In this document: piece after piece, positions 1,594-25,514 of the stretch | How positions within the stretch are numbered: position 1 is the first letter of the stretch | Layout of the letters: each line of letters starts with the position of its first letter | Origin: an uncultured cyanobacterium | GTDB lineage: Bacteria; Cyanobacteriota; Cyanobacteriia; CAKZMO01 | Direction of reading: 5' to 3' | DNA: 64,000 nt | Assembly: GCA_963719515.1 (NCBI GenBank) | Contig: CAVRCJ010000001.1 | Span: 96,001-160,000, forward strand | The notes under the pieces: model-generated | The model's database searches: none | What the model saw: the letters and a program-made list of their open reading frames with translations, nothing else | Told to the model about the DNA's origin: nothing | Program-made: the position numbers and the translations under genes

Positions 1594-1660
1594 GGCTTAT
1601 TGTGAGACTTGTGCTCTTACGGTAAGTCTGATAATAATACTATTAATCTCATATTAATAT
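1594..1660 (+). repeat. Three-box palindromic site, copy 1
   Basis: GGCTTA-TTG-TGAGAC (1594), CTCTTA-CGG-TAAGTC (1614), ATCTCA-TAT-TAATAT (1646). Confidence 0.6.
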
Positions 1661-1722
1661 AAAGGGGTGCAGCGGCGCTTCGGGACCGCTCCTAGGGCTG
1701 CGGCCCGCCCACCCAAAGACCA

Positions 1723-3669
1723 TCACGTTCTGAGCACCCGTCCAGCATTCAAAATAGCCAGTAGAGCTACCCCCACATCAGCGAACACCGCTTCCCAAAG
1801 CGTGGCGATGCCTATTGCACCTAGGGCAATGAAAAGGGCTTTGACAGCCATAGCAAGAATGATGTTTTGCCAAACAATCTTCAGGGTTCTGCGGGCGATC
1901 GCGATCGCTTCAGCCACCTTGGCGGGCGAGTCGGTCATAATCACCACGTCGGCGGTCTCGATGGCCGCATCGGAGCCCAAGGCCCCCATCGCGATACCCA
2001 CGTCAGCCCGAGCGATCGCCGGGGCGTCGTTGATGCCGTCTCCCACGAAAGCAACTTTGCCGTTGGTTCGCTTGGCCTGCTGTAGGAACGCTTCTAGGGC
2101 ATTGACCTTATCCTCAGGCAAAAGCTCAGCGCGGTGCTGGTCAATCCCGATTCTCTGCGCAATGCCGTCGGCAACGGATTGGCGATCGCCCGTAAGCATG
2201 GCGGTCTCAATGCCCTGAACTTTCAGGGTACGAATGGCCTCGGCGGCATCGGGCTTCAGCGCATCGGCGATGAGAATCCGTCCGGTATACGTCCCTTCTA
2301 CGGCAAGATGGACCACTGTCCCCTCCATCTCACAGGCCTCATGGGGGACAGACTCTCGGTGCAGCAGCCGGTCATTCCCCGCAATCACTCGCTGCCCGTT
2401 CACGCGGGCGCGAATGCCGTGGCCCGAAATCTCTTCGTAGTCTCGCACCTCAGACCCATTCACCGGCTGTCCGTAGGCCCGCCGAATCGACTGCGCCACA
2501 GGATGATTGGACTGAGACTCAGCTTGGGCCGCTAGGGCCAGCAGTTGCCCTTGGCTCAAGCCGTTTTCGGAAACCACCTCGACAACTCGAAAGTTGCCCT
2601 GGGTGAGGGTACCCGTCTTGTCAAACACCACCGTCTTCACCTGGGTTAAGGTATCCAAGAACGTCGAACCCTTAACCAAAATGCCGCGCTTCGCCGCCCC
2701 GCCCACGCCGCCAAAGTAGCCTAAAGGAATGCTAATGACGAGGCCGCAGGGGCAGGAAATCACCAGCAGGACTAAAGCCCTGTAGGTCCATTCCGCTGGC
2801 GTTGCACCGGGCAGCAGCAGCGGCGGCAGAATCGCCACGGCCAAGGAGAGAACCACCACCACAGGGGTGTAGTAGCGGGCGAAGCGGGTGATGAACTTCT
2901 CGGTGTCGGCCTTTTTACTGCTGGCGCTTTCCACCAGCTCTAAAATTCTAGAAATAGAGGACGCTTCAAAGGGCTTGGTGACCCGCACGGTAAGCGCTCC
3001 GGACTGATTGATCATGCCCGCCAGCACGGAGTCGCCTACAGACAAACGGCGGGGCATCGACTCCCCCGTGAGCGCAGAGGTGTCAACCTGAGTGCTCCCT
3101 TCTAGGACTTCCCCGTCTAGAGGCACTTTTTCCCCAGGGCGCACCAAAATTACGTCCCCAACGCTCACCGAGTCCGGAGAGACCTGGCGAACTTCCCCGT
3201 TGACCTTCAAATTGGCCGTATCCGGTCGCACCTCTAGCAGCGCCTTAATCGACCGCCGCGATCGCCCTACGGAATAGCCCTGGAACAGCTCCCCCACCTG
3301 AAAGAACAGCATTACGGCTACCGCTTCAGGAATTTCGTGAATGGCGATCGCCCCTAGGGTTGCGATGGTCATCAAAAAATTCTCGTCAAAAATTCGTCCC
3401 CGCACAATGTTGCGTCCGGCAGTGGTCAGCACGCTCCAGCCGCTGAGCAGATAGGCAGGCATTAGAACCGCGTATTCGGCGATGGCGAAGGGGGTATTGT
3501 GCAGCGCGGTATTGAAGATTAGCCCCACCAGAAACAAGACAGCGGCGATCGCGATGGGCGGTAGTTCGTTGCGCAGGTCAAACTCGTCTGAGTCGTGCCT
3601 GTGTCCATGGCTATGATTGTGCCCAGGGTCATGGCCGCAGCTACCGCACCCGGCGTGGAATTCTGTCAT
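1723..3669 (-). CDS. cadA: Zn/Cd-translocating P1B-type ATPase (ZiaA/CadA-like)
   Basis: His/Cys-rich N-terminus, TGES, CPC, DKTGT, HP and GDGINDAP motifs. Confidence 0.93.
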   Translation of the reverse strand: MTEFHAGCGSCGHDPGHNHSHGHRHDSDEFDLRNELPPIAIAAVLFLVGLIFNTALHNTPFAIAEYAVLMPAYLLSGWSVLTTAGRNIVRGRIFDENFLMTIATLGAIAIHEIPEAVAVMLFFQVGELFQGYSVGRSRRSIKALLEVRPDTANLKVNGEVRQVSPDSVSVGDVILVRPGEKVPLDGEVLEGSTQVDTSALTGESMPRRLSVGDSVLAGMINQSGALTVRVTKPFEASSISRILELVESASSKKADTEKFITRFARYYTPVVVVLSLAVAILPPLLLPGATPAEWTYRALVLLVISCPCGLVISIPLGYFGGVGGAAKRGILVKGSTFLDTLTQVKTVVFDKTGTLTQGNFRVVEVVSENGLSQGQLLALAAQAESQSNHPVAQSIRRAYGQPVNGSEVRDYEEISGHGIRARVNGQRVIAGNDRLLHRESVPHEACEMEGTVVHLAVEGTYTGRILIADALKPDAAEAIRTLKVQGIETAMLTGDRQSVADGIAQRIGIDQHRAELLPEDKVNALEAFLQQAKRTNGKVAFVGDGINDAPAIARADVGIAMGALGSDAAIETADVVIMTDSPAKVAEAIAIARRTLKIVWQNIILAMAVKALFIALGAIGIATLWEAVFADVGVALLAILNAGRVLRT

Positions 3670-3691
3670 AGGTTTTGCTCAGAAAAGCTTG

Positions 3692-3717
3692 AACAACTGA
3701 AGGGATATTCAGATATT
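3692..3717. promoter_or_regulatory. SmtB/ZiaR-type operator upstream of the ATPase
   Basis: Imperfect 12-2-12 inverted repeat AACAACTGAAGGGATATTCAGATATT (TGAA-N6-TTCA core). Confidence 0.75.
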
Positions 3718-3770
3718 AGGAAGCAGCACGGGCTGTTGACAACCGTAGCGATATCTTTGTGGAGGTGAGC

Positions 3771-4994
3771 TTACGCCTCGTCGACATGCTCAGCCACATC
3801 TCGGTAAGGGACATTCAAGCAAAACGTCGTCCCAACTTGAGCGTCTAGACTTAGAAGGAGTTGTTGAAACCGGGTAGGCAAGAGTGGAACTGACAGAAGG
3901 TGTTAAATCGCTTTTCATTGAGACCGCAGAAACGCTCAAAGGGCACGAGCGCCGTCGTTTCATGGCAAAGACAGTTACCGAACTGGGGCCAGGAGGGCAA
4001 CGGCTGGCCGAGCGGGAGCTGGGGTGGAGCCGCGAGGTGATTCGAAAAGGGCAGCGAGAAGTGAGCAGCGGCATCATCTGCATCGATAACTTCAAGGGGA
4101 GGGGACGAAACCCAACAGAGCACTACTTGCCGAGGCTGGTAGAAGATTTACGCTCTATCGTCGATAGTCAAAGTCAAAGCGACCCGCAGTTCAAAAACCA
4201 GCGGCTATACACCCGGCTGAGCGTAGCGCAGGTAAGGTCGCAGCTGATTGAGAGCAAAGGCTACCTATCAGAGGAATTGCCCAGCAACGAACCTGGCTTA
4301 CTATCCGCCCTACCACAGCAAGTACAACCCTGTTGAGCGCGTTTGGGGCATCTTAGAGCAGCACTGGAACGGCAGCATCCTCGATGAGGTTGACACCGTG
4401 GTGCGCTTTGCCCGAACGATGTGCTGGCGAGGACGACCTCCAGTGGTCACCTTGGTGACGAAGACCTATCAAACTGGGGTCAAGCTGACTCAAAAAGCGA
4501 TGGTCCAGGTGGAACAACAAATCCAAAGACTCTCTCACACTGACCAAGAAGGGCTCCCTGACCTCGGCAAGTGGTTTGTGGACATCCCCTGGACCACAGC
4601 TTGAGCATTGGCATACTTTTTTCTTTGAATGTCCCTAAAGCGCCACAATATGCTCATCCGCTAGGCTGTAGTAGACGTTGCGGCCCTGGCGGCGATATTT
4701 AACTAACCGGTGCGATCGCAGTACCCGCAGCTGGTGCGACACCGCTGATTCTCCCATTGTGACGGCAGCGGCTAAGTCACAGACGCAAAGCTCCTGCTGT
4801 GCTAGGGCTGAGAGCAGCTTTAGTCGGTGGGGGTCGGAGAGGGCGCTAAAAAATTCTGCCATCCGCTGCGCTTTCTCCGTTTCAAGCACTTTGGGCTGGA
4901 CCTGACGCACGTTGTTGAGGTGGACGAGCGGTTCCGCACAACCGGGAATATTGGGGCGAGGATCTCTTTCTTTGGCGGAGCGAGAGGCGACCAT
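3771..4994 (-). pseudogene. ArsR/SmtB-family metal-sensing repressor (ZiaR/SmtB-like) interrupted by an IS
   Basis: ELCVCDLA...SAVSHQLR...LADEHIVAL at 4994-4636; the C-terminus YRDVAEHVDEA* lies at 3807-3771 beyond the IS. Confidence 0.9.
3808..4635 (+). mobile_element. ISAzo13-family element, apparently internally deleted (828 bp)
   Basis: Terminal IRs GGGACATTCAA; TAA target duplication (3805-07 and 4636-38); transposase N-terminus (3884-) joined out of frame to C-terminus LAYYPPYHSKYNPVERVWGILEQHWNG. Confidence 0.85.
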
Positions 4995-5046
4995 GATGAG
5001 CGAACCTCGAAGTATTTCTGTAACCTATGGTACTAGTGATCCCTGT

Positions 5047-5068
5047 CACCTGAACGCTTGTTCAGATA
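5047..5068. promoter_or_regulatory. Second SmtB-type operator (autoregulation of the repressor)
   Basis: CACCTGAACGCTTGTTCAGATA, TGAAC...GTTCA core ~50 bp upstream of the repressor start. Confidence 0.7.
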
Positions 5069-5263
5069 AGTTAGCATTCTTGCAACCTGTGCTAGATGGC
5101 GTGCTGCGTACCTGTACTCAGTCTAGCCAAGGCGAAGGGGTGGCATCTTGAAATGCTCAGCGCAACTGCTGATGGAGTTTCAGCATCAGGTTGTCTACAT
5201 AATTTCAATCTTATTGAGCTTATAGCCCCCTTTAGACCAGCGATTACGCTGTGCTAGCCAAAA

Positions 5264-6022
5264 ATGTACAACCTAAAGAATTTCGCGAAAGAAGATGTGT
5301 TTGAGAGTGCAATAGCGCTTCGGAACATGGATAATGAGTCAGCTAATACTGAAGAAACTGCCAACAAAATAGTCAAATATATTTATAGCAAATTTACCTT
5401 TCCTGATACTGAAGAAAGCGCCTGTGCTTTAGTCCGTTTTTTTAAAACCCATCCCTATCAGCTGCTAGAAGATGACGTTCAGAAAGCGGCTCAGGCGCTT
5501 ATAGGCAGGGAGGATATACCTGCTGCTACACAATGTCTAACGTTGCTCGGAACTGCTGGCGACAGGCCAGAGTGGAATTTCAGGCAAGGGTCAAACGGGC
5601 ATCAGGCAATTCCGCTAATCGACGGAGACTTTGTGCGCGGCATCCCTATGATTTTTCAGCTGATTAGGCAATTCGGCTTAGATGTTAGCACTGTGCTTGA
5701 AGGCTCTCCTACCATGATTACTCAGTCTGCCTGCAGGGGATTCAACGTTTTCTACGTTCCTGAAGCCTTGGACAGTCCCTATATTCCTGCCCAAAGTGAT
5801 TTTGTGGCTCCCCATAAGGTTCAGTCGGTTTTAGGGTTTGGCGGGTTATTGGCGACTGGAGACTTATTCGCGGTTATTCTATTCAGTAAAGTTTTTATCC
5901 CGCTTGAAACAGCCAAACAGTTTAAGTGGCTCTCGGCTTATGTTCGTCTTGCTGCTGAGAAGTTTGATCGGGAGAAAACCTTTGCTAGAAGCTTGAAGCC
6001 ACAGAGCCCGGTAAAATCCTGA
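5264..6022 (+). CDS. Uncharacterised protein; stand-alone sensor-like (possibly GAF-like) domain
   Basis: 252-aa ORF; LVRFFKTHPY / CLTLLGTAG / VLGFGGLL motifs recalled from N-termini of cyanobacterial kinases. Confidence 0.6.
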   Translation: MYNLKNFAKEDVFESAIALRNMDNESANTEETANKIVKYIYSKFTFPDTEESACALVRFFKTHPYQLLEDDVQKAAQALIGREDIPAATQCLTLLGTAGDRPEWNFRQGSNGHQAIPLIDGDFVRGIPMIFQLIRQFGLDVSTVLEGSPTMITQSACRGFNVFYVPEALDSPYIPAQSDFVAPHKVQSVLGFGGLLATGDLFAVILFSKVFIPLETAKQFKWLSAYVRLAAEKFDREKTFARSLKPQSPVKS

Positions 6023-6099
6023 CGGACTTCGCTGGGAGGAGATGCGGCGTACTGCATCTTCGAGAATGGCCCGCAGTTCAGCAGCGCCAAAGTTTGCTT

Positions 6100-6165
6100 G
6101 TCTCGCGTCAAGACTCGCTTCATCAATATTAGTCTAACTATGAGATACGCAGTCTCTCATGAGAC
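6100..6165 (-). repeat. Three-box palindromic site, copy 2
   Basis: GTCTCG-CGT-CAAGAC (6100), GTCTAA-CTA-TGAGAT (6132), GTCTCT-CA-TGAGAC (6152). Confidence 0.65.
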
Positions 6166-6272
6166 AAGGTGGTGGGGCGATCGCTCCCTGCCGCCCGCCT
6201 CGCGCAGGCGTTCTAATTAGGCCCTAATATAAAGCTCTAAGCGCCGTTATTGTCAGGCGTAGCAGGAGCAGC

Positions 6273-8052
6273 TTGGTTGATTCTCAGCCCCAATCCTCTT
6301 CCCTACGGCATCTACGGCGGGTGCTGGGTCGTCTCGCCGCCTATCCCGCCCTTGCCCTCGGCACGTTGGGGAGTGCCCTGCTGCTGGTGGCGGCCTATGT
6401 GGCCACGCCGCAGCTGTTCCGCTGGGCCATCGACGAGGGCATCACCAAAGGCAACTTCACCGTCATCCTGCACAGCGGCATTGGGCTATTGATCGCCGCC
6501 GTGGCCCGTGGCCTGTTCAACTTTGGACAGAGCTTTTGCGCCGAGGCCCTGTCCCAAAGCGTGGTCTACGACCTGCGCAACCGCATCTTTAGCAAAATTC
6601 AGACCCTCAGCTTTAGCTACCACGACCAGGCCCAGACCTCTCAGCTGCTGACGCGGGTGACCAGCGACATTGAGCAGATTCGCACTTTTTTGAGCACCAA
6701 CCTGGTGCAGGTGATCAGCGGCTCCGTCACCCTGGTGACCATCGCCGTGCTGCTGCTGGTGATGAACTGGGAGCTGGCCCTGATCAGCCTGACGGTGGTG
6801 CCCATCGCGGGGTGGCTAATGGCGCGGTTTTTTAGCCGCAATAACCTACTGTTTCGCCGGGTTCAAGAGCAGCTCAGCGATCTCAACGGGGTGCTGCAGG
6901 AAAATCTGCTGGGGGTGCGGGTGGTGAAGGCCTTTGTGCGGGGGCCGGTGGAAACCGAGCGCTATACCCGGCTCAACCAGGACCTGGTGGCCGCTAACCT
7001 GAAGACCATCCAGGCAATCCGCAATACGTTTCCGTTTATGTTCCTGGCCAGCAACCTGGTGATTGTGGTGGTGATCGGCTACGGCGGGGCGGCGGTGATT
7101 GACCAGCGCTTTTCGGTGGGGGAGCTGGTGGCCTTTAACGCCTATCTGCTGCTGATTTTGCAGCCGATTTTGCTGATTGGCTTTGCGGCCCCGGCGATCG
7201 CCCAGGCGGCGGCTTCGGCGGAGCGGGTCTATGAGGTGGTGGACGCTGAGGTTGAAATTAAGGACCGGCCCCGGGCGGTGCCCTTCGAGCGATTGCGGCG
7301 GCAGAATCACCTTCGAAGACGTCTCCTTCCGCTATCCGGGGGCCACTACCCCGGCCCTGTGCCACATTTCTTTTGAAACCAAGCCCAACGAGCTAATCGC
7401 TATTTTGGGCATGACCGGCTCGGGCAAGAGCACCGTCACCAACCTGATTCCTCGCTTTTACGACGTAACCTCGGGGGCAGTGCGCATCGACGGGCGAGAC
7501 GTGCGGGACTTTACCCTCCACAGTTTGCGATCGCGCATCAGCACGGTGTTTCAGGAGACTACTCTGTTCTCGGGCACGATTTTTTCTAACATCGCCTACG
7601 CCAAGCCCGAGGCTACCCTAGACCAGGTGATGGAGGCGGCGAAAGCGGCCCAAATCCACGACTTTGTGGCTGGCCTGCCGGAGGGCTACGACACGGAGGT
7701 GGGAGAGCGAGGGGTGGGGCTTTCGGGCGGCCAGAAGCAGCGGGTGGCGATCGCCCGTACTCTGCTTACGGACTACAAGATTTTGATTCTGGATGACAGC
7801 ACTTCTGCGGTGGATGCCCAGACCGCTGCCCAGATTCAGGCGTCGCTGGATGACCTGATGCGCCGCCGCACCTGCACGTCGTTTGTGGTGGCGCAGCGAA
7901 TTAGCACGGTGCGCAATGCGGACCGGATTTTGCTGATGGATAAGGGGCGACTGGTGGCGCAGGGGACCCATGAGTTGCTGATGGCGAGCAGTCCGCTGTA
8001 TGGGGTGATTTTGGAGTCTCAGGTTGGGGCAGCCCCGGCGCTGACGGGGTGA
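6273..8052 (+). CDS. ABC exporter permease/ATP-binding subunit; +1 frameshift near 7293
   Basis: TMD ORF 6273-7376 plus NBD ORF (GMTGSGKS, LSGGQKQR, ILDDSTS); removing one T in CGATTGC restores the frame. Confidence 0.88.
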
Positions 8053-8072
8053 GCTATGGTTGTGATATTTTC

Positions 8073-8303
8073 ATGAGCATGGGGATAGTCAACACCATTG
8101 CAGAATTTGCCACGGCTCAGGGCTGCAAGAATGCCTACGAGTTTTGGAAGCTTACAGGGCTATCCCAACCCACTGCTTACCGCCTCTACAATGACCGCGA
8201 CGCATTCCCCTCGAAAGAGACGCAGGCGGCTATCTGCAGCGCGTTCAATGCACAGCCAGGCGATTTCCTGCGGTATTTAGAAGATGGCGAGGATTGTAGC
8301 TAA
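8073..8303 (+). CDS. Cro/C1-type HTH transcriptional regulator
   Basis: AYEFWKLTGLSQPTAYRLY...ICSAFNAQPGDFL pattern. Confidence 0.75.
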   Translation: MSMGIVNTIAEFATAQGCKNAYEFWKLTGLSQPTAYRLYNDRDAFPSKETQAAICSAFNAQPGDFLRYLEDGEDCS

Positions 8304-8484
8304 CCCGCTCGCGCGCTCCTGGATCTTTGTTTGGCCGTGTGGATGTCTTTTACCAGCACCTGCAGCAAGTCTTTGGCAAAGCGTTGGTCAACCCTGTCCA
8401 ATACAACCCCACAAGACATCACGCATTGGCGAACGATGGGCCGACGCTATAGCTACACTTGAGATAGCGTTACCCTAGCCCACT

Positions 8485-8718
8485 ATGTCTGCAAGTGACC
8501 CTCTGAGTCCTACCCATACTGTGCTGGAAGCCGTAATACAGGAGATTAGGCGAACGCTATCTGAGCATTTGCCCAATTTTCTATAAATGATTCGACTGTT
8601 TCGAGCAAGTGTCGCCCTAAAGGCGGCTTAGGAAAGCTTTCGTCAAGGTTGGCATGAGGAAATGAGCGGGCAAGCGCTGCTGCGCTCTGAACTCTGGCGA
8701 GATATTGATGCCGAGTGA
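8485..8718 (+). pseudogene. Putative type II antitoxin remnant (two in-frame stops)
   Basis: ...IQEIRRTLSEHLPNFL*MIRLFRASVALKAA*ESFRQGWHEEMSGQALLRSELWRDIDAE*; its 3' end overlaps a short MPSE... start. Confidence 0.5.
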
Positions 8719-9263
8719 GCGATCGTTGGTCAATCTTGAGTTTCGCCTGAATCTGTATACAACTAGCTATGAGCTGAATATCGCTTTTCGGGTATGGCTA
8801 CGCTGGGTCGGTAGGCAACCTAACTAAACTATTGATGCTGACTTAAAAATGCCTACCTATCTCCATGGATGCTATTGAACACTATTTATGAAGACTGTTG
8901 AGTTTTTAAAATTTAGCCTAATCTATAACTTTTCGCGCTCTAGAAAAGCAATAACCTATTAGAACAATAGACAAGCTTTTCGGCGGTCCAAAATAGTTAA
9001 CAATTATTAACAAACTAATCTTTTGATTTCTTTAATTAGCTCAAATTCAGTCGCAGAGTGAATTTCGGCATAATGCATGCTTGTCCTTCAAGTTCAAATG
9101 CCCTAAAAATATAGATAATTCATACCAAGCTATACTATACGGCTTGATATGCCTTCAACACAAAGCTTTGAGCTAATGGCTAAGATGAATTTAGTACAAA
9201 GACTCAGCGTCATAATTCGCTGTGATTTACTGGGTCTTTCCCAATTAGAAAAGGACTGTTGAA

Positions 9264-9506
9264 ATGCCAAAAAATATGAAGCCAAACTTTCCGTACGCTC
9301 GCTTTATGCCAGATAACTTTTTTTCTTTCCTGCTGTTTTTGATTGCGCTGACGCTTCTTCTTCCTCGACCTGTGCAAATTATCTACACTAATAACTCACC
9401 CAACACAACTGCAAAGCAATCTAATCCTGTGGAGACAGATATCAATAATGAATCCCCTAACGCAGCTATAGAAGAGTCTGAGCGCGCTGAAGAAGACACC
9501 CCATAA
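9264..9506 (+). CDS. Small hypothetical membrane-anchored protein
   Basis: AAAGGA upstream; one hydrophobic segment plus polar tail; AT-rich context. Confidence 0.4.
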   Translation: MPKNMKPNFPYARFMPDNFFSFLLFLIALTLLLPRPVQIIYTNNSPNTTAKQSNPVETDINNESPNAAIEESERAEEDTP

Positions 9507-9779
9507 GTGTTCAGGAACTAGACGATCTTGTACAGTGAATAGAACTTGTTGCTGTTGCCAAAGACCATTCTATGGAGCAAAATATTTGCGAAACTCTTGA
9601 ACCCCGCTACGTCTCTCGCTCACCTGTGATTGAGCGAATTCGTCAGCGTTGGTCAACCTTATCCAATACGACCCCAGAAGACATGAGCATTGGCGAACAG
9701 TAGGCCGTCTTGATAGAGTTCTATCACCCAGCGATCGCCTGCTCCGCTCAGACAACTCTTATTCCCCCGCACCTACCCC

Positions 9780-11549
9780 ATGACCGCTCTCCCCCTCGCG
9801 GCACCCCCGCCCGCTAAGCCCAAGCTCTCCACCGCGAGGCGGTTCCTGCAATACTTCGCCCCCTACCGCCAAGAGCTCCCCGTGGCCCTGCTGCTAGTCG
9901 CCATCGGGGCCACCACCCAGGCCATCGGCCCGCTGCTCATCGGCTGGTCCATCGACAACCTCATCCTCAAGGGCAACCTGCCGGGCCTGCTGCGGATGCT
10001 GGCTCTGCTCACCGCCATCTACTTCATAGGTCTGTGGGCCATTCGCGGGCAGATTTTGCGCATGGGCTCCATCGTGCAGCGGCTGCTGGGGCAGCTCCGG
10101 CAGGATATCTTCGACAAGGTGCAGAGCCTGCCGGTGAGCTTCTTTGACCGCAGCGAATCCGGGGACCTGATGAGCCGCCTGCTCAACGACGTGAACACGG
10201 TCAACCAGGCCTTTGGGCTGACGATTCCCCAGATGCTGGGCCAGACCTTTAGCCTGGTGGGCATCATCATCGCCATGCTCTCCATCAACCTGCAGCTGGG
10301 GCTGCTGAGCAACCTGGTGGTGCCGCTGATGATCTTCACCACGGCGGTCTTCTCCCGCTGGGCCCGAAAGCGGTTTCGCGTTACCCGGCAGACCATCGGC
10401 GACCTGTCCGCCAAGCTGGAAGAGGACATCGGCAGCGTGCGCGAGGCTCAGGCGTTTAACCGCACCCAGCTCAACATTGAAGAATTTGACAGCCTCAACG
10501 CCGCCAACCGCCGCGCCAACGTGCAGGCCGTAGCGGTGACGGCGGCGTTCTTGCCCTCCATCGACTTCCTCAATACCCTGGCGATCGCCGGCGTGATGAC
10601 CTACGGCGGCTACCTCGCGGTGAACGGGGTGATGACAGTGGGCACGGTGACCGCCTTTTTGCTCTACGTGCAGCAGTTCTTTCGCCCGATTCAGATTCTC
10701 AGCCAGTTCTACACCCAGGCCCAGTCTGCCCTAGCGGGACTAGACCGCATCTTTTCGCTGCTGGATGAGCCCGCCACCTTAAAAGACGCTACCGACGCCA
10801 CCGAGATGCCCCCCATTCGCGGGGAGGTGCGCTTTGAGCAAGTGGAGTTTGGCTACACCGCCACTCAGCGGGTGCTCCAAGGGATAAACCTCTGCGCTCA
10901 GCCGGGGGAGATGATCGCCTTAGTGGGGCCGACGGGGGCGGGGAAAAGTACGATCATTAACTTGATTTTGCGGTTTTACGACGTCTCAGCGGGGGCCGTC
11001 AAAATTGACGGCATCGATGTGCGCCAGGTGACCCAGGCCAGCCTGCGGCGGCAGATTGGCATCGTGCTGCAGGACAACCTGCTGTTTAGCGGCACTGTGG
11101 CCGAAAATATCGCCTTTGGGGCTCCCGACGCCAGCCAGGCCGACATTGAAGCTGCGGCCCAGGCCGCCAACGCCCACGAGTTCATTACCCTGCTGCCCCA
11201 GGGCTACAGCACCCGCCTGGGAGAGCGGGGCGCGCCTTTGAGTCAGGGGCAGCGGCAGCTGGTGAGCATTGCCCGCGCGGTGCTGATCGACCCGCGCATT
11301 TTGGTGCTGGATGAGGCCACCAGCAGCATCGACACCCGCACCGAAGGGCTGGTGCAGGCGGCGATCGCCACCCTCCTGCAGGGGCGCACCAGCTTTGTGA
11401 TTGCCCACCGCCTCAGCACGGTCACCCAGGCGGATCAGGTGCTGGTGATTCAGCAGGGGGCGATCGCAGAGCGAGGCTCCCACAGCGAGCTGATGGCGCT
11501 CCAGGGCATCTATGCCAACCTGTATGGCTTACAGCTCGGGAGCGACTGA
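9780..11549 (+). CDS. ABC exporter permease/ATP-binding subunit (likely heterodimer partner of 6273..8052)
   Basis: GPTGAGKS, LSQGQRQ, LDEATS, IAHRLST. Confidence 0.92.
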   Translation: MTALPLAAPPPAKPKLSTARRFLQYFAPYRQELPVALLLVAIGATTQAIGPLLIGWSIDNLILKGNLPGLLRMLALLTAIYFIGLWAIRGQILRMGSIVQRLLGQLRQDIFDKVQSLPVSFFDRSESGDLMSRLLNDVNTVNQAFGLTIPQMLGQTFSLVGIIIAMLSINLQLGLLSNLVVPLMIFTTAVFSRWARKRFRVTRQTIGDLSAKLEEDIGSVREAQAFNRTQLNIEEFDSLNAANRRANVQAVAVTAAFLPSIDFLNTLAIAGVMTYGGYLAVNGVMTVGTVTAFLLYVQQFFRPIQILSQFYTQAQSALAGLDRIFSLLDEPATLKDATDATEMPPIRGEVRFEQVEFGYTATQRVLQGINLCAQPGEMIALVGPTGAGKSTIINLILRFYDVSAGAVKIDGIDVRQVTQASLRRQIGIVLQDNLLFSGTVAENIAFGAPDASQADIEAAAQAANAHEFITLLPQGYSTRLGERGAPLSQGQRQLVSIARAVLIDPRILVLDEATSSIDTRTEGLVQAAIATLLQGRTSFVIAHRLSTVTQADQVLVIQQGAIAERGSHSELMALQGIYANLYGLQLGSD

Positions 11550-11641
11550 CGTCGAGGCTGTGAGGCTAGCGGTAGATCGGTCTGCGAGCCGGGGCTTAGT
11601 GAGCACAACGTCTGATGGGATGGGGCGGCTTGGTACGGGGT

Positions 11642-12925
11642 CTACGTCTGCTTGCTCACGATAGCTATGACAACCGGCAGGCCAATGATTACAGCGATGC
11701 CAGCGCCAGCTGCAATCAAGAGAATCGGCAGCACGGCCAATACCTCCCGTATCAACGCATCGGCAGTCCGTTTGCCTGTTTCCCAATAGACCCAATCGTC
11801 TCCCAACTGGCTGGCTAGAGTCGTGCTACCGGAAACCATCACCACAATGCCATTCCCGGTGGCCGGATTAATGCGTACCGTATGGTTTAAGGCGGGAAGG
11901 TTGGCCCCGTCGTGCCCCACCACAAGACCTGCCTCAGTCTTCATGTAGACACTGTGACCCAGTCCCCAAATGCCAGAGGTACCGGGCTGAGGCGTCGTCA
12001 TCTCTGATAGCGTCGCCGGACTGAGAACCGGGTTGCTGCCAAAATAGGCTCGTGTAAGAGCGGCCATATCTTGAGGTGTGGCGTACAGAGATGCCGCTGC
12101 TGTTGCTGTGTAGCGGCGGTGGGGTGCTGGTTGGAGGTCCGTATCAAAACTTGTGGCCAGGTGACTTTCGCGATCGCTCGCTTCAATGCTCTCCCAATCA
12201 AAGCTTGCGCCCGTCATATTCAGAGGCTGCAATACGGTCTCCGTCATATAGTCTGCAAAGGTCTGGCCAGTGACCTCTTCTACTAAAAGCTGCAGCACCG
12301 TGTAGCCACCCCCTGAATAGCGCCAGCGATCGCCCGGCTGCTGCGTCACCGCCACACCGCGCGGCTCACCGGCTGCCGGGTCATGGGCTAGGGTGAGCGA
12401 TTCTTCTAGGGTCTGCAGCGGTTCGCCGGGCAGAAATCCCGCATAGCCGAAGCCATCGCCCAAGCCCGCAGTATGGCTCAGCAATTGGCGGACCGTAACC
12501 TCGCTGGCGTCGTAATCTCCGGCGGAAAATTGCCAGCGGGTTAGATAGTTCGATACCCGGTCATCTAAAGTGACGATTCTTCCATCCTCAACGAGCTTCA
12601 TCACGCCCCAGGCGGTGACCAACTTGCTGACCGAGGCCATTTGGTAGAGAGTCTTATCGAACTGGACTGGGGCCTGTGATAAATCCGCGTCGCCAAAACC
12701 GTGGGTAGCGATCACCTGGCCGTTCTGCACTAGAGCAATGGCCGCACTGCCGAACCGCTGACCGGCGGCCTTACCTACGGTTGCCACGAGGTACTCCTCA
12801 AAGGCAGCGGCATCACCGCTGGAAGCGACGGGGCGAGTTACGGCAAGACTGGCGATCGTTACGCCAACGGCGGCTAGTACCCATAGGGCAATGAAACCCA
12901 ATTTAGAGAAGAGATAGGAACCCAT
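11642..12925 (-). CDS. Serine hydrolase, beta-lactamase family
   Basis: SVSK (SxxK), LLSHTAG, YSGGGY, HDG; N- and C-terminal hydrophobic segments. Confidence 0.88.
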   Translation of the reverse strand: MGSYLFSKLGFIALWVLAAVGVTIASLAVTRPVASSGDAAAFEEYLVATVGKAAGQRFGSAAIALVQNGQVIATHGFGDADLSQAPVQFDKTLYQMASVSKLVTAWGVMKLVEDGRIVTLDDRVSNYLTRWQFSAGDYDASEVTVRQLLSHTAGLGDGFGYAGFLPGEPLQTLEESLTLAHDPAAGEPRGVAVTQQPGDRWRYSGGGYTVLQLLVEEVTGQTFADYMTETVLQPLNMTGASFDWESIEASDRESHLATSFDTDLQPAPHRRYTATAAASLYATPQDMAALTRAYFGSNPVLSPATLSEMTTPQPGTSGIWGLGHSVYMKTEAGLVVGHDGANLPALNHTVRINPATGNGIVVMVSGSTTLASQLGDDWVYWETGKRTADALIREVLAVLPILLIAAGAGIAVIIGLPVVIAIVSKQT

Positions 12926-13184
12926 CAGGTCACACTTGGTAGGCTAAAACTTTTGTCCTTGGCTTGCCTCTCGGGAAAACGTAAATTTCTAGCTCCTCAA
13001 GAAATGCAGCAGGTGAAATGCTGTCGCTGCCTATCAGAAGACCCATATGAAGCTCACATCACCATGGGCGATCTGCCGCTGGGGTGGATTGTACCCCGAG
13101 AAACGCGGTAATGCGCTCTTGGGCAGCAGCAGCAGATGTCCTGCTTGCTGTAAAGCTGATGTCCTAATTTAGCGCAGCGTCCGT

Positions 13185-13251
13185 TTCTTATGCTAAGAAT
13201 TGATTTTCCACTATGAGTCCAATTTTGAGACCTTGCATCTTAGCCTAATAC
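13185..13251 (-). repeat. Three-box palindromic site, copy 3
   Basis: TTCTTA-TGC-TAAGAA (13185), GTCCAA-TTT-TGAGAC (13217), ATCTTA-GCC-TAATAC (13237). Confidence 0.65.
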
Positions 13252-13799
13252 AGCTTCAAAAACCAAGCTCAACCTGCTCGCAGCTGCGGCTCAGGTCATC
13301 CGCGACAAAGGCGTCGCCCAGCTAACCCTGGAAGCCGTCGCCGACCAGGCCAAGGTCAGTAAAGGGGGGCTGCTATACCACTACCCCAGCAAACAGGCCC
13401 TGCTAACCGCCATGGTCACTCACCTGATTGATAGTTTCGAGACTGCGATCGCCGCCCAAATCGAAGCGGCGGATAGGAAAATGACCTGGCTAGAAGCTTA
13501 CGTCCTACTGTCCTTCGACCCTGAGCAGTCTCAGCTAGTGGAGAGCGCGGGCATCTTGGCGGCGGTGGTGGGCGCACCCTGAACTGCTAGAACCCCTGCA
13601 GCAGCAGTACCAGGCGTGGCAGGCCGCATCTGAGGCCAGCGGGCTTACACCTGCCTTAGCGACTGTGGTACGGCTGGCCGCTGACGGGTTATGGTTTACC
13701 GAGCTACTTGACGTCTCTCCACTGACGGAAGAGCGGCGATCGCAGGCTCTAGAGGCGCTGCTTGATCTGATTCGAACCCACAAGGAGCGACAGTCATGA
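13244..13799 (+). pseudogene. TetR-family regulator; no start codon and a frameshift near 13571
   Basis: LLAAAAQVIRDKGVAQLTLEAVADQAKVSKGGLLYHYPSKQALL; C-terminal RLAADGLW; stop overlaps the P450 start (ATGA). Confidence 0.8.
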
Positions 13800-15207
13800 C
13801 TAGCAACTTGATCCGTTCTAGTATCGAAAGGCCAAATCCGCCGAAAATCTCTCGCCTGACAGGGCTGGCCGCTCTTCGCAGCCTCATCCACTACAGCCGC
13901 CAGCCCCTAGAATTCTCCACCCTCACCCGCGAAAAGTATGGCGATGGCGTTTGCCTCACCCTTGGTCCGGTTCAAATCCACTTGCTCAACCATCCTGCTT
14001 TAATTGAAGCGGTACTGGCCAAGCAAAATCAGCGTTTTATCAAGGACATCAGCTACCGAGCCTTGAAGGGCGTATTCGGCGACGGGCTGCTGCTGAGCGA
14101 AGGGGACGTATGGAAGCGACACCGACGGCTGATGCAGCCAGGTTTTGAGGCGATCGCATGGCGCATTATGCCGCTACGGTGGTAGCAGACGCGGCTCAAG
14201 TGCTGGATTGCTGGCGAGTTGGGGAGGTGCGCGATGTGCATCAGGAGATGAGCCAGCTGACGGTGCGGGTGATCACCCAAGCGATGTTCGGCGTGGAGGT
14301 GGTAGAGACTGCGCTGGAGATTGGCGAGGCCATGGAGGCGATTATGGTGCGCTATTTTCACCAGGCGGAAACCTGGTTTTTGATGCCGAACTGGTAGCCC
14401 ACTGCGAGCAACCGGAAAGCCCATAAAGCCACACGGCGACTGAGGACGCTAGTCGACGACATCATTGACCAGCGCCGTCAAACCCCCAAAGGTGATCTGC
14501 TCTCAGCCCTGCTGCAAGCTCAAGACGAAGCCGGTGAACGGCTCTCCCAGCAGGAGCTGCGGGATGAGGTGATGACGCTGCTGCTGGCGGGGCACGAGAC
14601 GACGGCCAATGCCTTAACCTGGACGCTGTTGCTCCTGGCTCAGCACCCAGCAGTATGGGACAGGCTGGCGAAGGAGGTGCATTTGGTCTTGGGCGATCGC
14701 TTGCCCACCTATGGCGATTTGCCCCAGCTGCACTACACCAAGTGCATCATCAAAGAATCAATGCGGCTCTACCCACCGGCTTGGGCGCTAGGCCGCGAGG
14801 TGGTTGAGGATTGCCAGATTGAGGGCTATAGCCTGAAGCGCGGGACCGCAGTTTACGTCAGCCAGTGGGTTATGCAACGCGTCCCACGCTTTTTTGAAGA
14901 ACCAGAGCAGTTTTGCCCGCAGCGATGGGCGGGAGGCTTAGAGCAGCGCTTGCCTCGCGGGGTCTATTTCCCCTTTGGCGCAGGACCACGGGTTTGCATT
15001 GGCAAAGCCTTTTCGATGATGGAGTCGGTGTTGATTTTGGCAATGGTAGCGCAGCGGTTTCGACTGAGGCTGGCACCGCAGCCGCCGGTAGAGCTACTGC
15101 CGTCGATTACGCTGCGGCCAAAGCGGGGCGTTGAGATGAGAGTACAGCGCAAATGGTGCTTCTCCGCGCAAAAGCCTATACTTGGACAGAGGGCTTGTCT
15201 CGATTGA
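13796..15207 (+). pseudogene. Cytochrome P450 (frameshift ~14150, in-frame TAG 14395-14397)
   Basis: AGHETT, ESMR (ExxR) and FGAGPRVCIG heme motif spread over three ORF pieces. Confidence 0.88.
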
Positions 15208-15632
15208 GCTGGACCTTGCCAACAGAGCCAGAAAGGCGAGAGCTTTTCATACCCCTAGACTGAATTGAGTGCCGCCTTGGTCGTTCTGAGATAGGCTAGG
15301 AATGGGTTATAGCCTATCCTGACGGGGCGAGCATCTTGTTCAAAAAGCTCTGTAGATTTAGTCCAATTTTAGTCCAACTAAGAACGCGATCGCCAAAACC
15401 CTTATCGGGCAAGTGTTTATGGAAGTTTCTGATTATTTGCGGGTTACCGCAAATAATCAAAGGGCTGTTAATATCGGCGGGAGTCCTAGCGGAAGCTCTA
15501 ACCTTATACAACTTCTCTGTAGACTGTCTCTCCACTTCCTTACCCCCTTTTTGCCCTGGTATCCTGGCCTGCTATGGTCTAACGCGCTCCAAATCAGCAG
15601 CTAGCTGAGTCTTCAAGGCACCCAATTCGTTA

Positions 15633-16037
15633 ATGCAGCCCCGCTCACCCCGTAATTCAGGCCCCACAACAGAGCTAGCAAAGCAGCGCAACCAGGCCGC
15701 AGCGGAAAGGACTCTGCTTGCCTGGATTCAAAACAGCCTGATGCTGCTCGGCTTGGGCATCACGCTCAACTATGTTGCGGCTTCACTTCTCCAAAACGCT
15801 TCTAGTTTTAATGAGGCGATCGCTCAGTCAGCGTTTGATTCACTCAGCCTACTCGTCATACCCTTAGGGCTCATCTTGCTCGCATTGGCAATCTGGCAAT
15901 ACCGGCTTTCGGTGCGATCGCTTCGGCGCAAGAATGACGTTTTGCTCCCAAGTCAGCTGATGGTGATAGTTGCAGTCGTATCAGTGACTCTGTTTGGAAT
16001 TATTTCAGCCGTCATCGTTTTGTTCAGAAGCGTCTAA
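15633..16037 (+). CDS. DUF202/YidH-family membrane protein
   Basis: ELAKQRNQAAAERTLLAWI plus 3 TM segments. Confidence 0.8.
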   Translation: MQPRSPRNSGPTTELAKQRNQAAAERTLLAWIQNSLMLLGLGITLNYVAASLLQNASSFNEAIAQSAFDSLSLLVIPLGLILLALAIWQYRLSVRSLRRKNDVLLPSQLMVIVAVVSVTLFGIISAVIVLFRSV

Positions 16038-16043
16038 TCCTTT

Positions 16044-16442
16044 TCAGGTAAACGCCTTGATTAAAATTCCAACAAAAGCAACCACCCCAAACACGAGTAG
16101 CGAATTGGCCACGATCAGGCCGATGGAGCGCTCAGGAACGTAGGTATAGTCCTCGTGCTGGATGTGCTTAAGCTCCTGGCGATGCTGCACAGCTGCCGCC
16201 AGCGTCGCCCAGGTCCCCAGAGCAATGAAGAACAGGCCCAAAATTCGCGATAGCCGAATTGGGTTATTGACCCCCGCTACGTTGTTCAGCGCTGCCACGA
16301 TCTGGTCAATACCGAAGCCAAAGCTAATCAAAGAAAGACTTGTCCGAATCCACGCCATCAGCGTTCGCTCTGCGGCCGCCTGGTTTCTTTTCTTAGCAAG
16401 TTCAGTTTTGAGGTCGAGGCGAGTAGTTTGAGGAGCTTGCAT
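16044..16442 (-). CDS. DUF202/YidH-family membrane protein (start uncertain)
   Basis: ELAKKRNQAAAERTLMAWIRTSLSLISFGFGI. Confidence 0.82.
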   Translation of the reverse strand: MQAPQTTRLDLKTELAKKRNQAAAERTLMAWIRTSLSLISFGFGIDQIVAALNNVAGVNNPIRLSRILGLFFIALGTWATLAAAVQHRQELKHIQHEDYTYVPERSIGLIVANSLLVFGVVAFVGILIKAFT

Positions 16443-16863
16443 GGCTGTAGTTTCGGTGGGGCGATCGCTAAGCGAGTAGTCTTTCAGATCGTAGTCGTAT
16501 CGGTAACTCTCCTTGACCATTCCAGGCAGGTCACCTAGGTGATTTGGCCTTGCTGAAAGGGGTCGAGGAGAACCAGGGTGATCTTCCCACAGCCCGCGAT
16601 CGCCTAGCTCACGTCCCAGACCGCTAGCGCTGAAGATGGGAGGCCCCATGACAAGATAATCGCGGTCCAACTGTGTTGCCCCTCCACCTTACACTCAGCG
16701 TCGGGGCGGCAATTTGTCCAGATACAGTCCTGGTACTTCAGTCCGGGAAGGAAGTAATGAGAGTAACCTACTGCTTTGGGCATATTCAGCACAGATACCG
16801 CCACAGCGATCGCCAGAAGTAGTGGCGCAGATTCAGTTTGCCCAAGACAAATACTAATGCTCA

Positions 16864-17454
16864 ATGCTCAAAAACTATATTGCCCTGGCCGGTTTACTGG
16901 TCTCCAGCCTCTCCACCGCGATAATGCTCCCTTGGAGTCAACCAGTCAATGCTCTCCCGGCCGTTGATTCCGCCTGCTACATGATTGGCGGACCCGGACA
17001 AACCCTCGACTTATCTGCCCTATGCGGGCAGGGCTCAACCGCCGCACCACAAGCACCAGCGCCCGTTGGCACCTCCAGCCCTAGCTTCGAGCAAGCGATG
17101 GACAATATAGGCTTAAGGCGCTGGACAGATGGCCAATTTGACAATATTGCTTTTGATGTTTGGACCAAGCAGGGCGGGGGATTCTACTACTTCCTCTGGT
17201 CTATGCCAGCCCCTGAAGATCGCAGTGATCCAGACGTCGTCGTGTTCTTCGATAGCAGCGTTTCTCGCCTCAACAGAGCCTTCGTGCTGGGGTGCTACTT
17301 TTCCTCTGGAAGCACCTGTACCGGGGATGGACTCTCGCCAGCAGGCTATACCGAGAGTGCCGTTGAACATCTTATCGACGATCTATCGATAATATCGCCG
17401 CACGTTCGGCGAAGAGGCCCCTGCAATGTAAACTGCATCAGCGGATTTCGCTAG
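16864..17454 (+). CDS. Secreted hypothetical protein
   Basis: Signal peptide followed by CYM...GQTLDLSALCG motif. Confidence 0.65.
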   Translation: MLKNYIALAGLLVSSLSTAIMLPWSQPVNALPAVDSACYMIGGPGQTLDLSALCGQGSTAAPQAPAPVGTSSPSFEQAMDNIGLRRWTDGQFDNIAFDVWTKQGGGFYYFLWSMPAPEDRSDPDVVVFFDSSVSRLNRAFVLGCYFSSGSTCTGDGLSPAGYTESAVEHLIDDLSIISPHVRRRGPCNVNCISGFR

Positions 17455-17558
17455 ACTCTACCCCCGTTCGGCCTGAGGCCATCACTTGCCTATTGCGCTC
17501 ACCATAAGCCCAGCAGCAACTTCACCGATAGCCTTTAATTCAGCTTCAGAAAGACACA

Positions 17559-17693
17559 ATGCATTCGTTTATGGCAATTCAGCGTCACGCTAAACCGGCT
17601 GAGGTTGCGGGGATGGTGGCCTATTCGGTTGGCCCTGAGGTGTCGATCGCGACGGGGGCGCAGCACGCTATCGATGGTGGTTTTGGGGCGTAA
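17559..17693 (+). pseudogene. SDR oxidoreductase (BdcA-like) C-terminal remnant
   Basis: MHSFMAIQRHAKPAEVAGMVAYSVGPEVSIATGAQHAIDGGFGA*. Confidence 0.7.
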
Positions 17694-17716
17694 AGAACGG
17701 GCATCTTTCCTCTTTT

Positions 17717-17763
17717 AGGCGATCGCTACGCGGGCGTTTTCCGCAGTGGGCGATCGCCTTTTT
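17717..17763 (+). terminator. HIP1-containing hairpin followed by a T-tract
   Basis: AGGCGATCGC...GCGATCGCCT followed by TTTT. Confidence 0.55.
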
Positions 17764-17822
17764 GTGAGACTGTGAGTTTCATAGTGAGACTCATAGTGGT
17801 TGAGGTGGTCTCAGATTAAGAG
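17756..17822 (+). repeat. Three-box palindromic site, copy 4
   Basis: GCCTTT-TTG-TGAGAC (17756), GTTTCA-TAG-TGAGAC (17776), GTCTCA-GAT-TAAGAG (17808). Confidence 0.65.
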
Positions 17823-17902
17823 CAATAGAGCTATTGACCGAGTTATTCCTCTTCGACTATGCTGCAAAGGTCATAGTTGATTGAGCCGCTAAACGGTAAT
17901 TC

Positions 17903-17977
17903 ATGCAGCAGCGTTCTCCACAATTCGCCCTACTCCTAGGGCTGCTGCTCCTGCGCGTCAAGCGCAGAACAATTTGA
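17903..17977 (+). CDS. Putative leuA leader peptide MQQRSPQFALLLGLLLLRVKRRTI
   Basis: 7 Leu codons in an 8-codon run upstream of leuA; complementary downstream segment at 18013-18020. Confidence 0.65.
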   Translation: MQQRSPQFALLLGLLLLRVKRRTI

Positions 17978-18189
17978 CATACTATTTTTCCACCGCAGTA
18001 TAAGCATCGGACGCCCTAGGCTACGCTAGGGGCTGACTTCATATAGGCTTTTGCTAGCAAGGCAGGCACCGTACAGGTGGCCTGTCCTTCATCCATCTCT
18101 GGTGCTCTTAGGCAGTGGTCCATAACACCGCCATGGACGTGTTCAGCGTTCTGGAAGCCCCTCGTTTTGAGGGAAGGGAACCAGACTCT

Positions 18190-18211
18190 CCTCTCCCAAA
18201 ATTGGGAGAGG
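18190..18211. repeat. Cyanobacterial REP-like hairpin
   Basis: CCTCTCCCAA-AA-TTGGGAGAGG. Confidence 0.5.
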
Positions 18212-18343
18212 GGCCGGGGAAGAGCGCCAAAGCCGCGCTAAACACATGCCTACCATGCCCATACTCTCAATTCCATGCCCTACCGTGGCACCGTCGCATT
18301 CCCACGGCCCAATATCCAAATTCACAACACCCGAGTTTCTACC

Positions 18344-20050
18344 ATGTTGACTAATCCCGCAGCCAAATATCAACCCTTTCAGCCCGTCAATTTACCCAAT
18401 CGCACCTGGCCCAGCCAAACCATCACCCAGCCCCCCGTCTGGCTGAGTACCGACCTGCGAGACGGCAACCAGGCTCTCATCGAACCCATGAACCGTCGCC
18501 GCAAGCTGGATATGTTTGAGCTGCTGGTGGCCATCGGATTTAAGGAAATCGAAGTGGCCTTTCCCTCCGCCTCGCAAACTGATTTCGACTTCGTCCGCGA
18601 CCTCATTGAAGGCGATCGCATCCCCGACGACGTCACCATTCAGGTGCTCACCCAGGCCCGAGAGCACCTCATCCGCCGAACCTTCGAGTCGCTGCGGGGG
18701 GCAAAGCGGGCCATTGTTCATGTCTACAACGCCACTGCGCCCAACTTCCGCCGCGTGGTGTTCCGGCAGGATAAAGCCGGCACCATCGAGCTCGCTGTCA
18801 ACGCGGCCCAGCTGATTCAAGCGTTGGCTGCCCAGCAGCCCGACACCCACTGGCGCTTTCAGTACTCCCCGGAAACCTTCACCGCCACTGAGCTAGACTT
18901 CGCCAAAGACATTTGCGACGCGGTCCTCGACGTCTGGCAGCCTACCGCTGACCGCAAAGCTATCATCAACCTTCCCGCCACTGTGGAAGTTTCTACCCCG
19001 AACGGCTTTGCCGACCAGGTGGAGTGGATGCACCGCCACATGGCCCACCGCGAAAACACCGTTCTCAGCGTTCACACCCACAACGACCGGGGCTGTGCGA
19101 TCGCCGCCGCAGAGTTGGCCCAGCTAGCGGGAGCCGACCGAGTAGAAGGCTGTCTATTTGGCAACGGGGAGCGCACCGGCAACGTGGACTTAGTCACCCT
19201 AGCCCTGAATCTCTATACCCAGGGCGTTCATCCCGGCCTGGATTTCTCCCACATTAACGAGGTGGCCCGCACCGTAGAAAACTGCACCCAGCTCCCTATC
19301 CACCCCCGTCATCCCTATGTGGGCGACTTGGTGTTCACCGCCTTTTCCGGCTCTCACCAGGACGCCATCAAAAAAGGCTTCGAGGCCCACGACGCTGCTG
19401 GGCTGTGGGAGATACCCTATCTGCCTATTGACCCCGCCGACCTGGGCCGCACCTACGAGTCGGTGATTCGGGTCAACAGCCAGTCGGGCAAGGGGGGGAT
19501 GGCTTTCTTGCTTGAGCGGGACTACGGTCTGGCCATGCCCCGCCGCATGCAGATTGAGTTCAGCCAGGTGGTGCAGCGGGTGATGGATGAGCGGGGTGAG
19601 GAGATGACCTCCGCACAGCTTTGGGATCTGTTTCAGCAGGAGTATCTGCAGCGGTCTACGCCGTTTAAGCTAGACACCTATCGGCTGATGGAGAGCGGCA
19701 CGGACCAGGAGATTGGCGCTACGGTGCGCTTTAACGGCCAAGACTTTTCTATTGCAGGCTGCGGCAATGGTCCTATTGATGCCTTCTTAGACGCACTGGA
19801 TATGCAGGTGAAGGTACACCACTACGAAGAGCGATCGCTCTCCCACGGTAGCGACGCTAAGGCGATCGCCTTTGTTGAGCTGTCGGGGGACTTTATTCCT
19901 AGCTCAACGTTTGGTGTAGGAATCCACGAGAACATTGTGACGGCGTCGCTGCTGGCGGTGCTGTGTGCAGTGAACCGGGTGATGGCGCAGGTGGATGAAG
20001 GTGCTCGTCGTAGGCTGCTGCAGCGATTTGAGCAGGCTTTGATTGTCTGA
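18344..20050 (+). CDS. leuA: 2-isopropylmalate synthase (LEU4/proteobacterial-type)
   Basis: [39 protein letters not shown]; likely start MLTNPAAKY. Confidence 0.93.
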
Positions 20051-20078
20051 AGGAGGCGATCGCGTGCTTGCTCTAGCC

Positions 20079-20153
20079 ATATCAAGATAAGACGGGAAAA
20101 GCCAAGATAAGACTAATTCTGAAGAGAGTCGTCTTAGTCTAAGACGACTCTCT
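20079..20153 (+). repeat. Three-box palindromic site, copy 5; third box extended into a perfect 15-1-15 palindrome
   Basis: ATATCA-AGA-TAAGAC (20079), AAGCCA-AGA-TAAGAC (20099), AGAGAGTCGTCTTAG-T-CTAAGACGACTCTCT (20123-20153). Confidence 0.6.
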
Positions 20154-24835: not shown

Positions 24836-24957
24836 ATCGACCTACTGCTTCGGCCCAGTTGCTTAGAACAATGCAGACGGCAAGCCTCAGTGTTTCATAG
24901 GTTACTGGGCAGCAGGTCCCGGCGTCCCCACGGTCGTCGGGACTGCTTCGATTAGAC

Positions 24958-24986
24958 TTGCCCTCTGACCGCGAATAGTGTAAATT
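24958..24986 (+). promoter_or_regulatory. Sigma70-type promoter for leader B (TTGCCC-17bp-TAAATT)
   Basis: Same -35 and spacing as copy A. Confidence 0.55.
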
Positions 24987-24994
24987 TTACGCTT

Positions 24995-25207
24995 GAGAGC
25001 TGCAACCCGCAGCTTAGCTCCCAAGACTTTGGTCATAAACGGCGACGACCGTTGCTGGAGACAGCGATCGCCGCCTGACCCCCAAGACAGGACAGAGCTG
25101 TCCGGGCGCTATGGGCATTGTCCCATGGCCATCCCGAACACCCAACGTCGCAGGGATGGCCAAGGCTTGGGTTTCCTACCCATCAACGCAAAACAGGAAC
25201 CCAAACC
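24995..25207 (+). ncRNA. Candidate structured RNA leader, copy B
   Basis: Hairpins 24998-25014, 25031-25080, 25086-25102, 25111-25126, 25127-25161, 25168-25182, colinear with copy A. Confidence 0.65.
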
Positions 25208-25486
25208 GTGACATTTTTATACCCCGAACAGCCCCTCGACCGCGAGGCGGCACTGATTCGCCTAGACCAAATTCCGCCCCAGCCCGACGGCGAGGTGGTG
25301 CGTCACCTGCTCATCGGCTCCCCCGAGGGCATCCGCGAAACCATCCACCTCATGCACATCAACCGCTACTACGTCGAGCAGGGCCTGTGGACCGGACCGG
25401 TGGACATTGGCCCCGACGGCGTGAGGCTGAGCCGCCGGGAAGGGCAGGTGTTGGCCTACCTAATGCGCCAGCGCGGGCTGCAGTAG
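25208..25486 (+). CDS. Small uncharacterised protein (92 aa, MTFLYPEQP...RHLLIGSPEGIRETIHLMH...)
   Basis: GTG start preceded by AGGA; N-terminus shared with the ORF at 64..1. Confidence 0.75.
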   Translation: MTFLYPEQPLDREAALIRLDQIPPQPDGEVVRHLLIGSPEGIRETIHLMHINRYYVEQGLWTGPVDIGPDGVRLSRREGQVLAYLMRQRGLQ

Positions 25487-25514
25487 CCTAAACGCCGGCC
25501 AGGGCGGTGCTGGC

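Follow-up and report, generated by a model that had tools for sequence, protein, structure and literature searches.

Phased sequence arrays cluster round a recombination-type site roughly opposite dnaN in many cyanobacteria

What function could be served by five similar sites of about 67 bp that lie dispersed between unrelated genes of a single chromosomal stretch? The window analysed here is a stretch of 64,000 nucleotides from an uncultured cyanobacterium (G000:C1:96001-160000; assembly of 5.28 Mb in 21 contigs), and it carries a psbD-type gene, core genes and GCGATCGC repeats, as expected of a cyanobacterial chromosome. A first-pass annotation had noticed the five copies and had read them either as res- or att-like recombination sites that shuffle gene cassettes or as a shared operator or promoter. 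We found that such phased arrays occur in many cyanobacteria and cluster round a mostly single-copy recombination-type site roughly opposite dnaN. The crossover site is probably a separate element, absent from the first-pass annotation, at 15430..15459 of the window.

All five copies were recovered, their boxes starting at intervals of 20 and 32 bp as described: copy 1 at 1594..1660 (dyad centre 1627; 40.4 bits), copy 2 at 6100..6166 (centre 6133; 32.0 bits), copy 3 at 13185..13251 (centre 13218; 29.2 bits), copy 4 at 17756..17822 (centre 17789; 35.3 bits) and copy 5 at 20079..20145 (centre 20112; 20.2 bits). Copy 2, in which one outer box is 1 bp short, measures 66 bp and the others 67 bp. 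Pairwise ungapped identity was 32-40 of 67 positions when the better orientation was taken; the spacer sequences differ from copy to copy, and no hairpin common to the five copies was found. A matrix made from the five copies matched no further site in the 5.28-Mb genome and scored four of the five on both strands, which indicates dyad symmetry and the presence of a fourth box, overlapping the others at offset 32. The palindromic boxes are therefore real but are not three in number, forming instead a symmetric dyad of 9-bp units, and the strand labels previously given to the copies have little meaning.

The scores quoted above come from a matrix built with 80 of 91 aligned sites, from which the rows of this genome and its genus had been dropped; the 91-site set was originally seeded from the five copies, so that this matrix is not fully independent of them. 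With it, the five copies took ranks 1-5 in the genome (20.2-40.4 bits), the next site reached 9.6 bits, and two block-shuffled genomes peaked at 7.1 and 8.0 bits, so the copies passed the comparison with shuffled DNA that had been proposed for them. A strict form of the array pattern was present in 10 of 401 cyanobacterial genomes, and the reversed control in none of the 401. Across 153 sites from other cyanobacteria the array unit was a 9-bp pseudo-palindrome, TRAGWCTYA, with unit centres at -32, -20, -12, 0, +12, +20 and +32 (spacing 12-12-8); unit-to-unit spacing peaked at 12, 20 and 32 bp, and some arrays were extended further with a period of 32 bp. Because three units fall in each 32 bp, the units would lie on one face of the helix.

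A second motif was common to the loci of the array-bearing genomes, namely an arm-type direct repeat of two 11-bp-period units, TGGACTAAA. Its single exact occurrence in this genome lies between copies 3 and 4, at 15358..15376 on the minus strand. The repeat matched 69 of the 401 genomes (control 3) and was single in 61 of these 69, as counted from the table. Upstream of it is a conserved palindrome, referred to below as the core, which is dif-like and of tyrosine-recombinase type (15430..15459, minus strand); the two are separated by a spacer with weakly conserved phased A/T tracts (15377..15429, minus strand), the length of which is kept across cyanobacteria or is longer by about two helical turns. 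Among 87 loci selected for the core and arm together, 84 had a core of the form TTGACTAGTTGC-N7-GCAAATAATCAA (12-7-12), with an overlap of 7 bp in 82 and of 8 bp in 2, and the arm stood at +73/74 relative to the core in 49 loci and at +94-96 in 11. At 8 of the 12 pairs the left and right core arms agreed better than in column shuffles, palindromy having been in part a selection criterion. The overlap of the window is 8 bp in this assembly, and in a related strain one contig, of low depth, is without the base at 15447, within that overlap. The core and arm model gave a strong match in most families sampled and a weak match or none in others; core, arm and arrays were all present in a metagenome-assembled genome of the Sericytochromatia (L132). 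No tRNA gene was found near the core in eight of the nine core loci scanned, the exception being L020 with a tRNA gene 180 bp away. Several arm-like repeats per contig were also seen in G149:C19 and G126:C29, possibly as arrays of integrated elements.

The core lay at a median of 0.454 of the circle from dnaN, and at 0.40 or more in 15 of 23 complete or largest contigs, which were taken as circular chromosomes with dnaN as a proxy for the origin; kin among the genomes counted are not independent data points, so that p-values come out too strong. No relation to dnaA was seen. According to extracts of PMC3480399, oriC of S. elongatus adjoins dnaN while dnaA is elsewhere, and GC skew gives only a poor definition of the cyanobacterial terminus. 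The core is, with high probability, the terminus recombination site. The arrays keep to the same region. A genome-wide array model built from 91 of the 153 sites matched 27 of 40 genomes, with 0 matches in the controls, and in the 20 genomes with both a located core and arrays (seven of them outside the training set) none of the 50 array matches was more than 15 kb from the core. Of 84 core loci, 57 carried arrays, and the one feature that the arrays have in common genome-wide is their nearness to a single terminus site.

As the first-pass annotation had stated, no recombinase is encoded in the window: the single PF00589 match of the genome is a 384-aa protein on contig C10, whose gene adjoins hemH. 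No match to PF00239 (serine resolvase) was found in the genome. The catalytic R, K, R, H and Y columns are invariant in the alignment of the recombinase (A9), and its N-terminus has a weak arm-domain match (PF12167, E 0.043), one homologue being named DUF3596. When 40 mostly closed genomes were scored for both recombinase and core (threshold E 1e-3 or better), a core match was obtained in 15 of 22 genomes with an orthologue of the recombinase versus 1 of 18 without; of the seven orthologue genomes missing the core, six had weak or no matches and G163 had a recognisable core. In six loci this arm repeat has a homologous integrase beside it, several of these loci being at tRNA genes. The distance from the arm to the anticodon centre is 68-69 bp in L074 and L115, against 67 bp between the chromosomal arm and the overlap centre, while five other loci have 164-232 bp on the opposite side. 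On this evidence, a domesticated integrase probably uses the chromosomal core and arm as its att-like substrate, although the site is unlinked to the recombinase gene and lies in the core chromosome. FtsK was not found in four of the five genomes searched, this genome among them. An actin-like ATPase gene (L034:6006-7049 on G000:C10; ALP_N, E 3.8e-9) is convergent with the recombinase gene, and a link with segregation is possible.

In three of the first loci examined, a gene for a protein of about 116 aa lay beside ppa with arrays upstream. The protein had 2392 homologues in the search, several of them named 'resolvase' at NCBI, a misannotation since the protein is without a catalytic domain. 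In its predicted structure a domain resembling a winged helix is followed by a C-terminal helix, with Xis, BldC, terminase and RacA domains as the nearest folds at modest Z; no MatP family or chain was among its matches in profile and structure comparisons. Of 34 genomes with this gene, 27 had arrays; of the six without it, none did. The gene lies inside the core loci of 13 genomes; in the present genome it is on another contig without an array, so that arrays follow the terminus and not the gene. Given these patterns of co-occurrence and context, the small protein is predicted, with good confidence, to bind the arrays. In two proteins, P0178 and P0180, the small-protein domain is fused to a GntR helix-turn-helix and to the N-terminal domain of an integrase.

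Observed directly were the build of the arrays, their clustering, a core opposite dnaN in most of the chromosomes tested, and the co-occurrence of core with recombinase and of arrays with small protein; binding and recombination we infer from these. The explanation that we favour on balance, with modest confidence, is that the arrays organise the terminus when bound by the small protein, round a dif-equivalent core cut by the arm-domain recombinase. The winged-helix domain would bind the units cooperatively along one helix face, three per 32 bp, and the C-terminal helix would oligomerise; arrays bridged in this way could compact the terminus region and keep sister termini joined, in the manner of MatP at matS. 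The recombinase, as a presumed domesticated relative of tRNA-targeting cyanobacterial integrases, would act at the core to resolve chromosome dimers, controlled through the arm site and with no need of FtsK. A broader proposition, which we put forward tentatively, is that most cyanobacteria run their terminus with a domesticated integrase/excisionase pair of phage type, in which an arm-domain integrase resolves dimers without FtsK at an att-like site serving as dif, and a former excisionase acts as sequence-specific terminus organiser on the arrays, a task that it can perform in the absence of the integrase. Some data weigh against a position of the core opposite dnaN. In seven chromosomes the core was only 0.25-0.39 of the circle from dnaN; outside the 23 contigs, G022 has its core 238 kb from dnaN and G168 a weak match near 0.16 (G188 and G333, draft contigs, are likewise outside the 23). 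The co-occurrence of arrays with the small protein includes only six negative genomes, of related lineages.

A different role for the same components is conceivable, in which the arrays are accessory sites of recombination and the Xis-like protein bends or wraps DNA near the core, imposing a resolution-only direction and replacing FtsK. Such models are known from Xis for phage integrases and from PepA/ArgR at plasmid sites. The predicted Xis-like fold, the distant relatives of the small protein in which the family domain is joined to the N-terminal domain of an integrase, and the failure to find FtsK all agree with it, as do the 87 of 141 arrays that lie less than 1 kb from the core, a count biased by short loci. 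However, the distance from array to core is not fixed, the nearest array being 2.2 kb away here and others 9-14 kb away; four genomes without a recombinase orthologue keep arrays, which score weakly, extend over as much as 180 kb and lie at 0.43-0.50 of the circle from dnaN; and G038 has the core with neither arrays nor the small-protein gene. We regard this explanation as unlikely, though not negligible. The same four genomes, together with G038, also argue against binding of the arrays by the arm domain of the recombinase or by another nucleoid protein in place of the small protein; this is very unlikely in our judgement, even though array and arm units have T-N-R-GAC-T-N-A in common and the small number of negative genomes noted above speaks in its favour.

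Replication fork barriers of the RTP/Ter or Tus/Ter kind, confining fork fusion near the core, would also be clustered at the presumed terminus, and in this window the centre base of the arrays does switch at the core (three on the left, two on the right). In Ter of B. subtilis overlapping subsites share a trinucleotide, of which the overlapping array units with their common trinucleotide are reminiscent. Across loci, on the other hand, polarity was absent: 73 arrays pointed away and 67 toward, and the loci were evenly divided, 23 versus 23. Each array is also almost symmetric in itself, and 111 of the 141 are found on the same side of the core, which leaves a fork barrier improbable. It is no more probable that the arrays are ordinary operators which first autoregulated the small-protein gene and then spread locally by chance. 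Arrays do stand directly upstream of this gene in several genomes, but they remain with the core where the gene has moved, as here; the genes beside them are unrelated, gene starts are found at varying distances from the arrays, and copy 5 is placed 29 bp beyond a stop codon. The operator or promoter proposed by the first-pass annotation accordingly appears unlikely. Its other suggestion holds in so far as the arrays are multi-subsite predicted protein-binding sites tied to site-specific recombination; the cassette-shuffling part does not. Crossover sites excising or inverting cassettes, similar to attC, pdif or res, would fit the location of arrays between accessory modules, and each 32-bp half can be read as arm-spacer-arm. 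Yet the divergent spacers, the lack of a common hairpin and the absence of a serine resolvase speak against this, no array accompanies the ATPase and ABC modules where these have homologues at four loci from relatives (L030-L033), and the arrays flanking leuA are kept in place in three relatives of the genus, as inherited positions. None of the seven joints listed in four runs was on an array, contigs being able to show the presence and not the absence of rare joints. Rearrangement breakpoints at arrays were thus not borne out, and cassette exchange is the least likely of these explanations, with a very low probability.

Positions 1-25000 of the window are occupied by accessory genes, one miniature inverted-repeat transposable element (MITE) and one insertion sequence remnant, a content compatible with a terminus. 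The MITE-like element (746-1142, 397 bp), of which the genome has 53 near-identical copies, splits an NADH:flavin oxidoreductase remnant, and an ISAzo13-type remnant (3805-4635) separates a metal ATPase from its ArsR regulator, its empty site being visible in contigs of two runs. Two inverted members of a multi-copy small-ORF family of about 500 bp bracket the accessory region (1-296 and 24957-25487). Split genes were seen for an ABC transporter (6273-8052), a P450 (13796-15207) and chorismate synthase (25515-26604), some of which may be assembly indels; one contig is without a base at 7287, in the region of the split ABC transporter. Upstream of leuA, a 24-aa leucine-rich leader peptide (17903-17977, plus strand) is likely part of a leucine attenuator, and the non-coding stretch that holds it is 76-87% conserved in relatives. 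Further on, a protein with TIR-repeat and WD40 parts is encoded in two ORFs (55528-59590), possibly as a defence gene.

A dif site has been missing in this phylum. The available text of Kono et al. (2011, PMC3025954) reports that dif prediction failed in Cyanobacteria, one of two such phyla, and that of a 2019 genome paper (PMC6416890) that no dif was predicted in cyanobacteria. No earlier description of the arrays or the core was found in the literature searched, supplements being outside that search. The core is likely the long-missing cyanobacterial dif, the site of chromosome-dimer resolution. If the integrase/excisionase proposition holds, a third design of terminus machinery would be added and polyploid cyanobacteria would gain a defined terminus; with site, recombinase, accessory protein and motif named, dimer resolution and terminus organisation become testable in laboratory strains. 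Core and arrays would also provide a landmark by which cyanobacterial chromosomes can be oriented from their sequence, a function is offered for two conserved uncharacterised genes, and a self-contained tool for site-specific recombination is possible.

Among known systems, BldC and RacA/ram are MerR-like proteins on repeated sites with a different motif and role, RacA marking the origin. The fork traps RTP/Ter and Tus/Ter differ in the opposed polarity of their sites, which the arrays on either side of the core do not have (73 versus 67), and the cassette sites attC, pdif and res differ in that the arrays do not travel with a module and have neither a cognate resolvase nor a common hairpin. 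Xer/dif, especially XerS/difSL and XerH/difH, is similar in that a single palindromic core, located across from the origin, goes with a single conserved tyrosine recombinase encoded on the chromosome; a single core with an overlap of 6-8 bp, its location and a co-occurring tyrosine recombinase were all found here, whereas the 7-bp overlap, the arm-type repeat at fixed phase, the N-terminal arm-like domain and the failure to find FtsK set our system apart. Recombinase surveys (10.1101/542381, PMC8138268) name a separate simple 'Cyan' subgroup. The lambda-type arm-domain integrases with Xis (DUF3596/PF12167; extracts of PMC8138268) share the core and arm geometry, the 7-bp overlap and a predicted Xis-like partner, and differ from the present single site in the core chromosome, which is unlinked to the recombinase gene and mostly without a tRNA. 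As with MatP/matS of enterobacteria, repeated sequence-specific sites are confined opposite the origin and a small dedicated protein is predicted to oligomerise; the arrays, however, are phased multi-unit sites of 67 bp over tens of kb, unlike the matS 13-mers over 800 kb (extracts of PMC7188993), the array motif differs from the 13-bp matS, and the candidate binder appears MerR/Xis-like. ZapT of Caulobacter is a MerR-type protein assigned to the terminus region, as is predicted for the small protein, but according to the same extracts it lacks a consensus motif, has most of its binding sites within ORFs and adjoins ihfA, in contrast to the strong intergenic motif and the gene beside ppa described here. 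The arrays and core together would work like matS/MatP or ZapT round a dif-like site, yet they differ from each of these systems in a defining feature.
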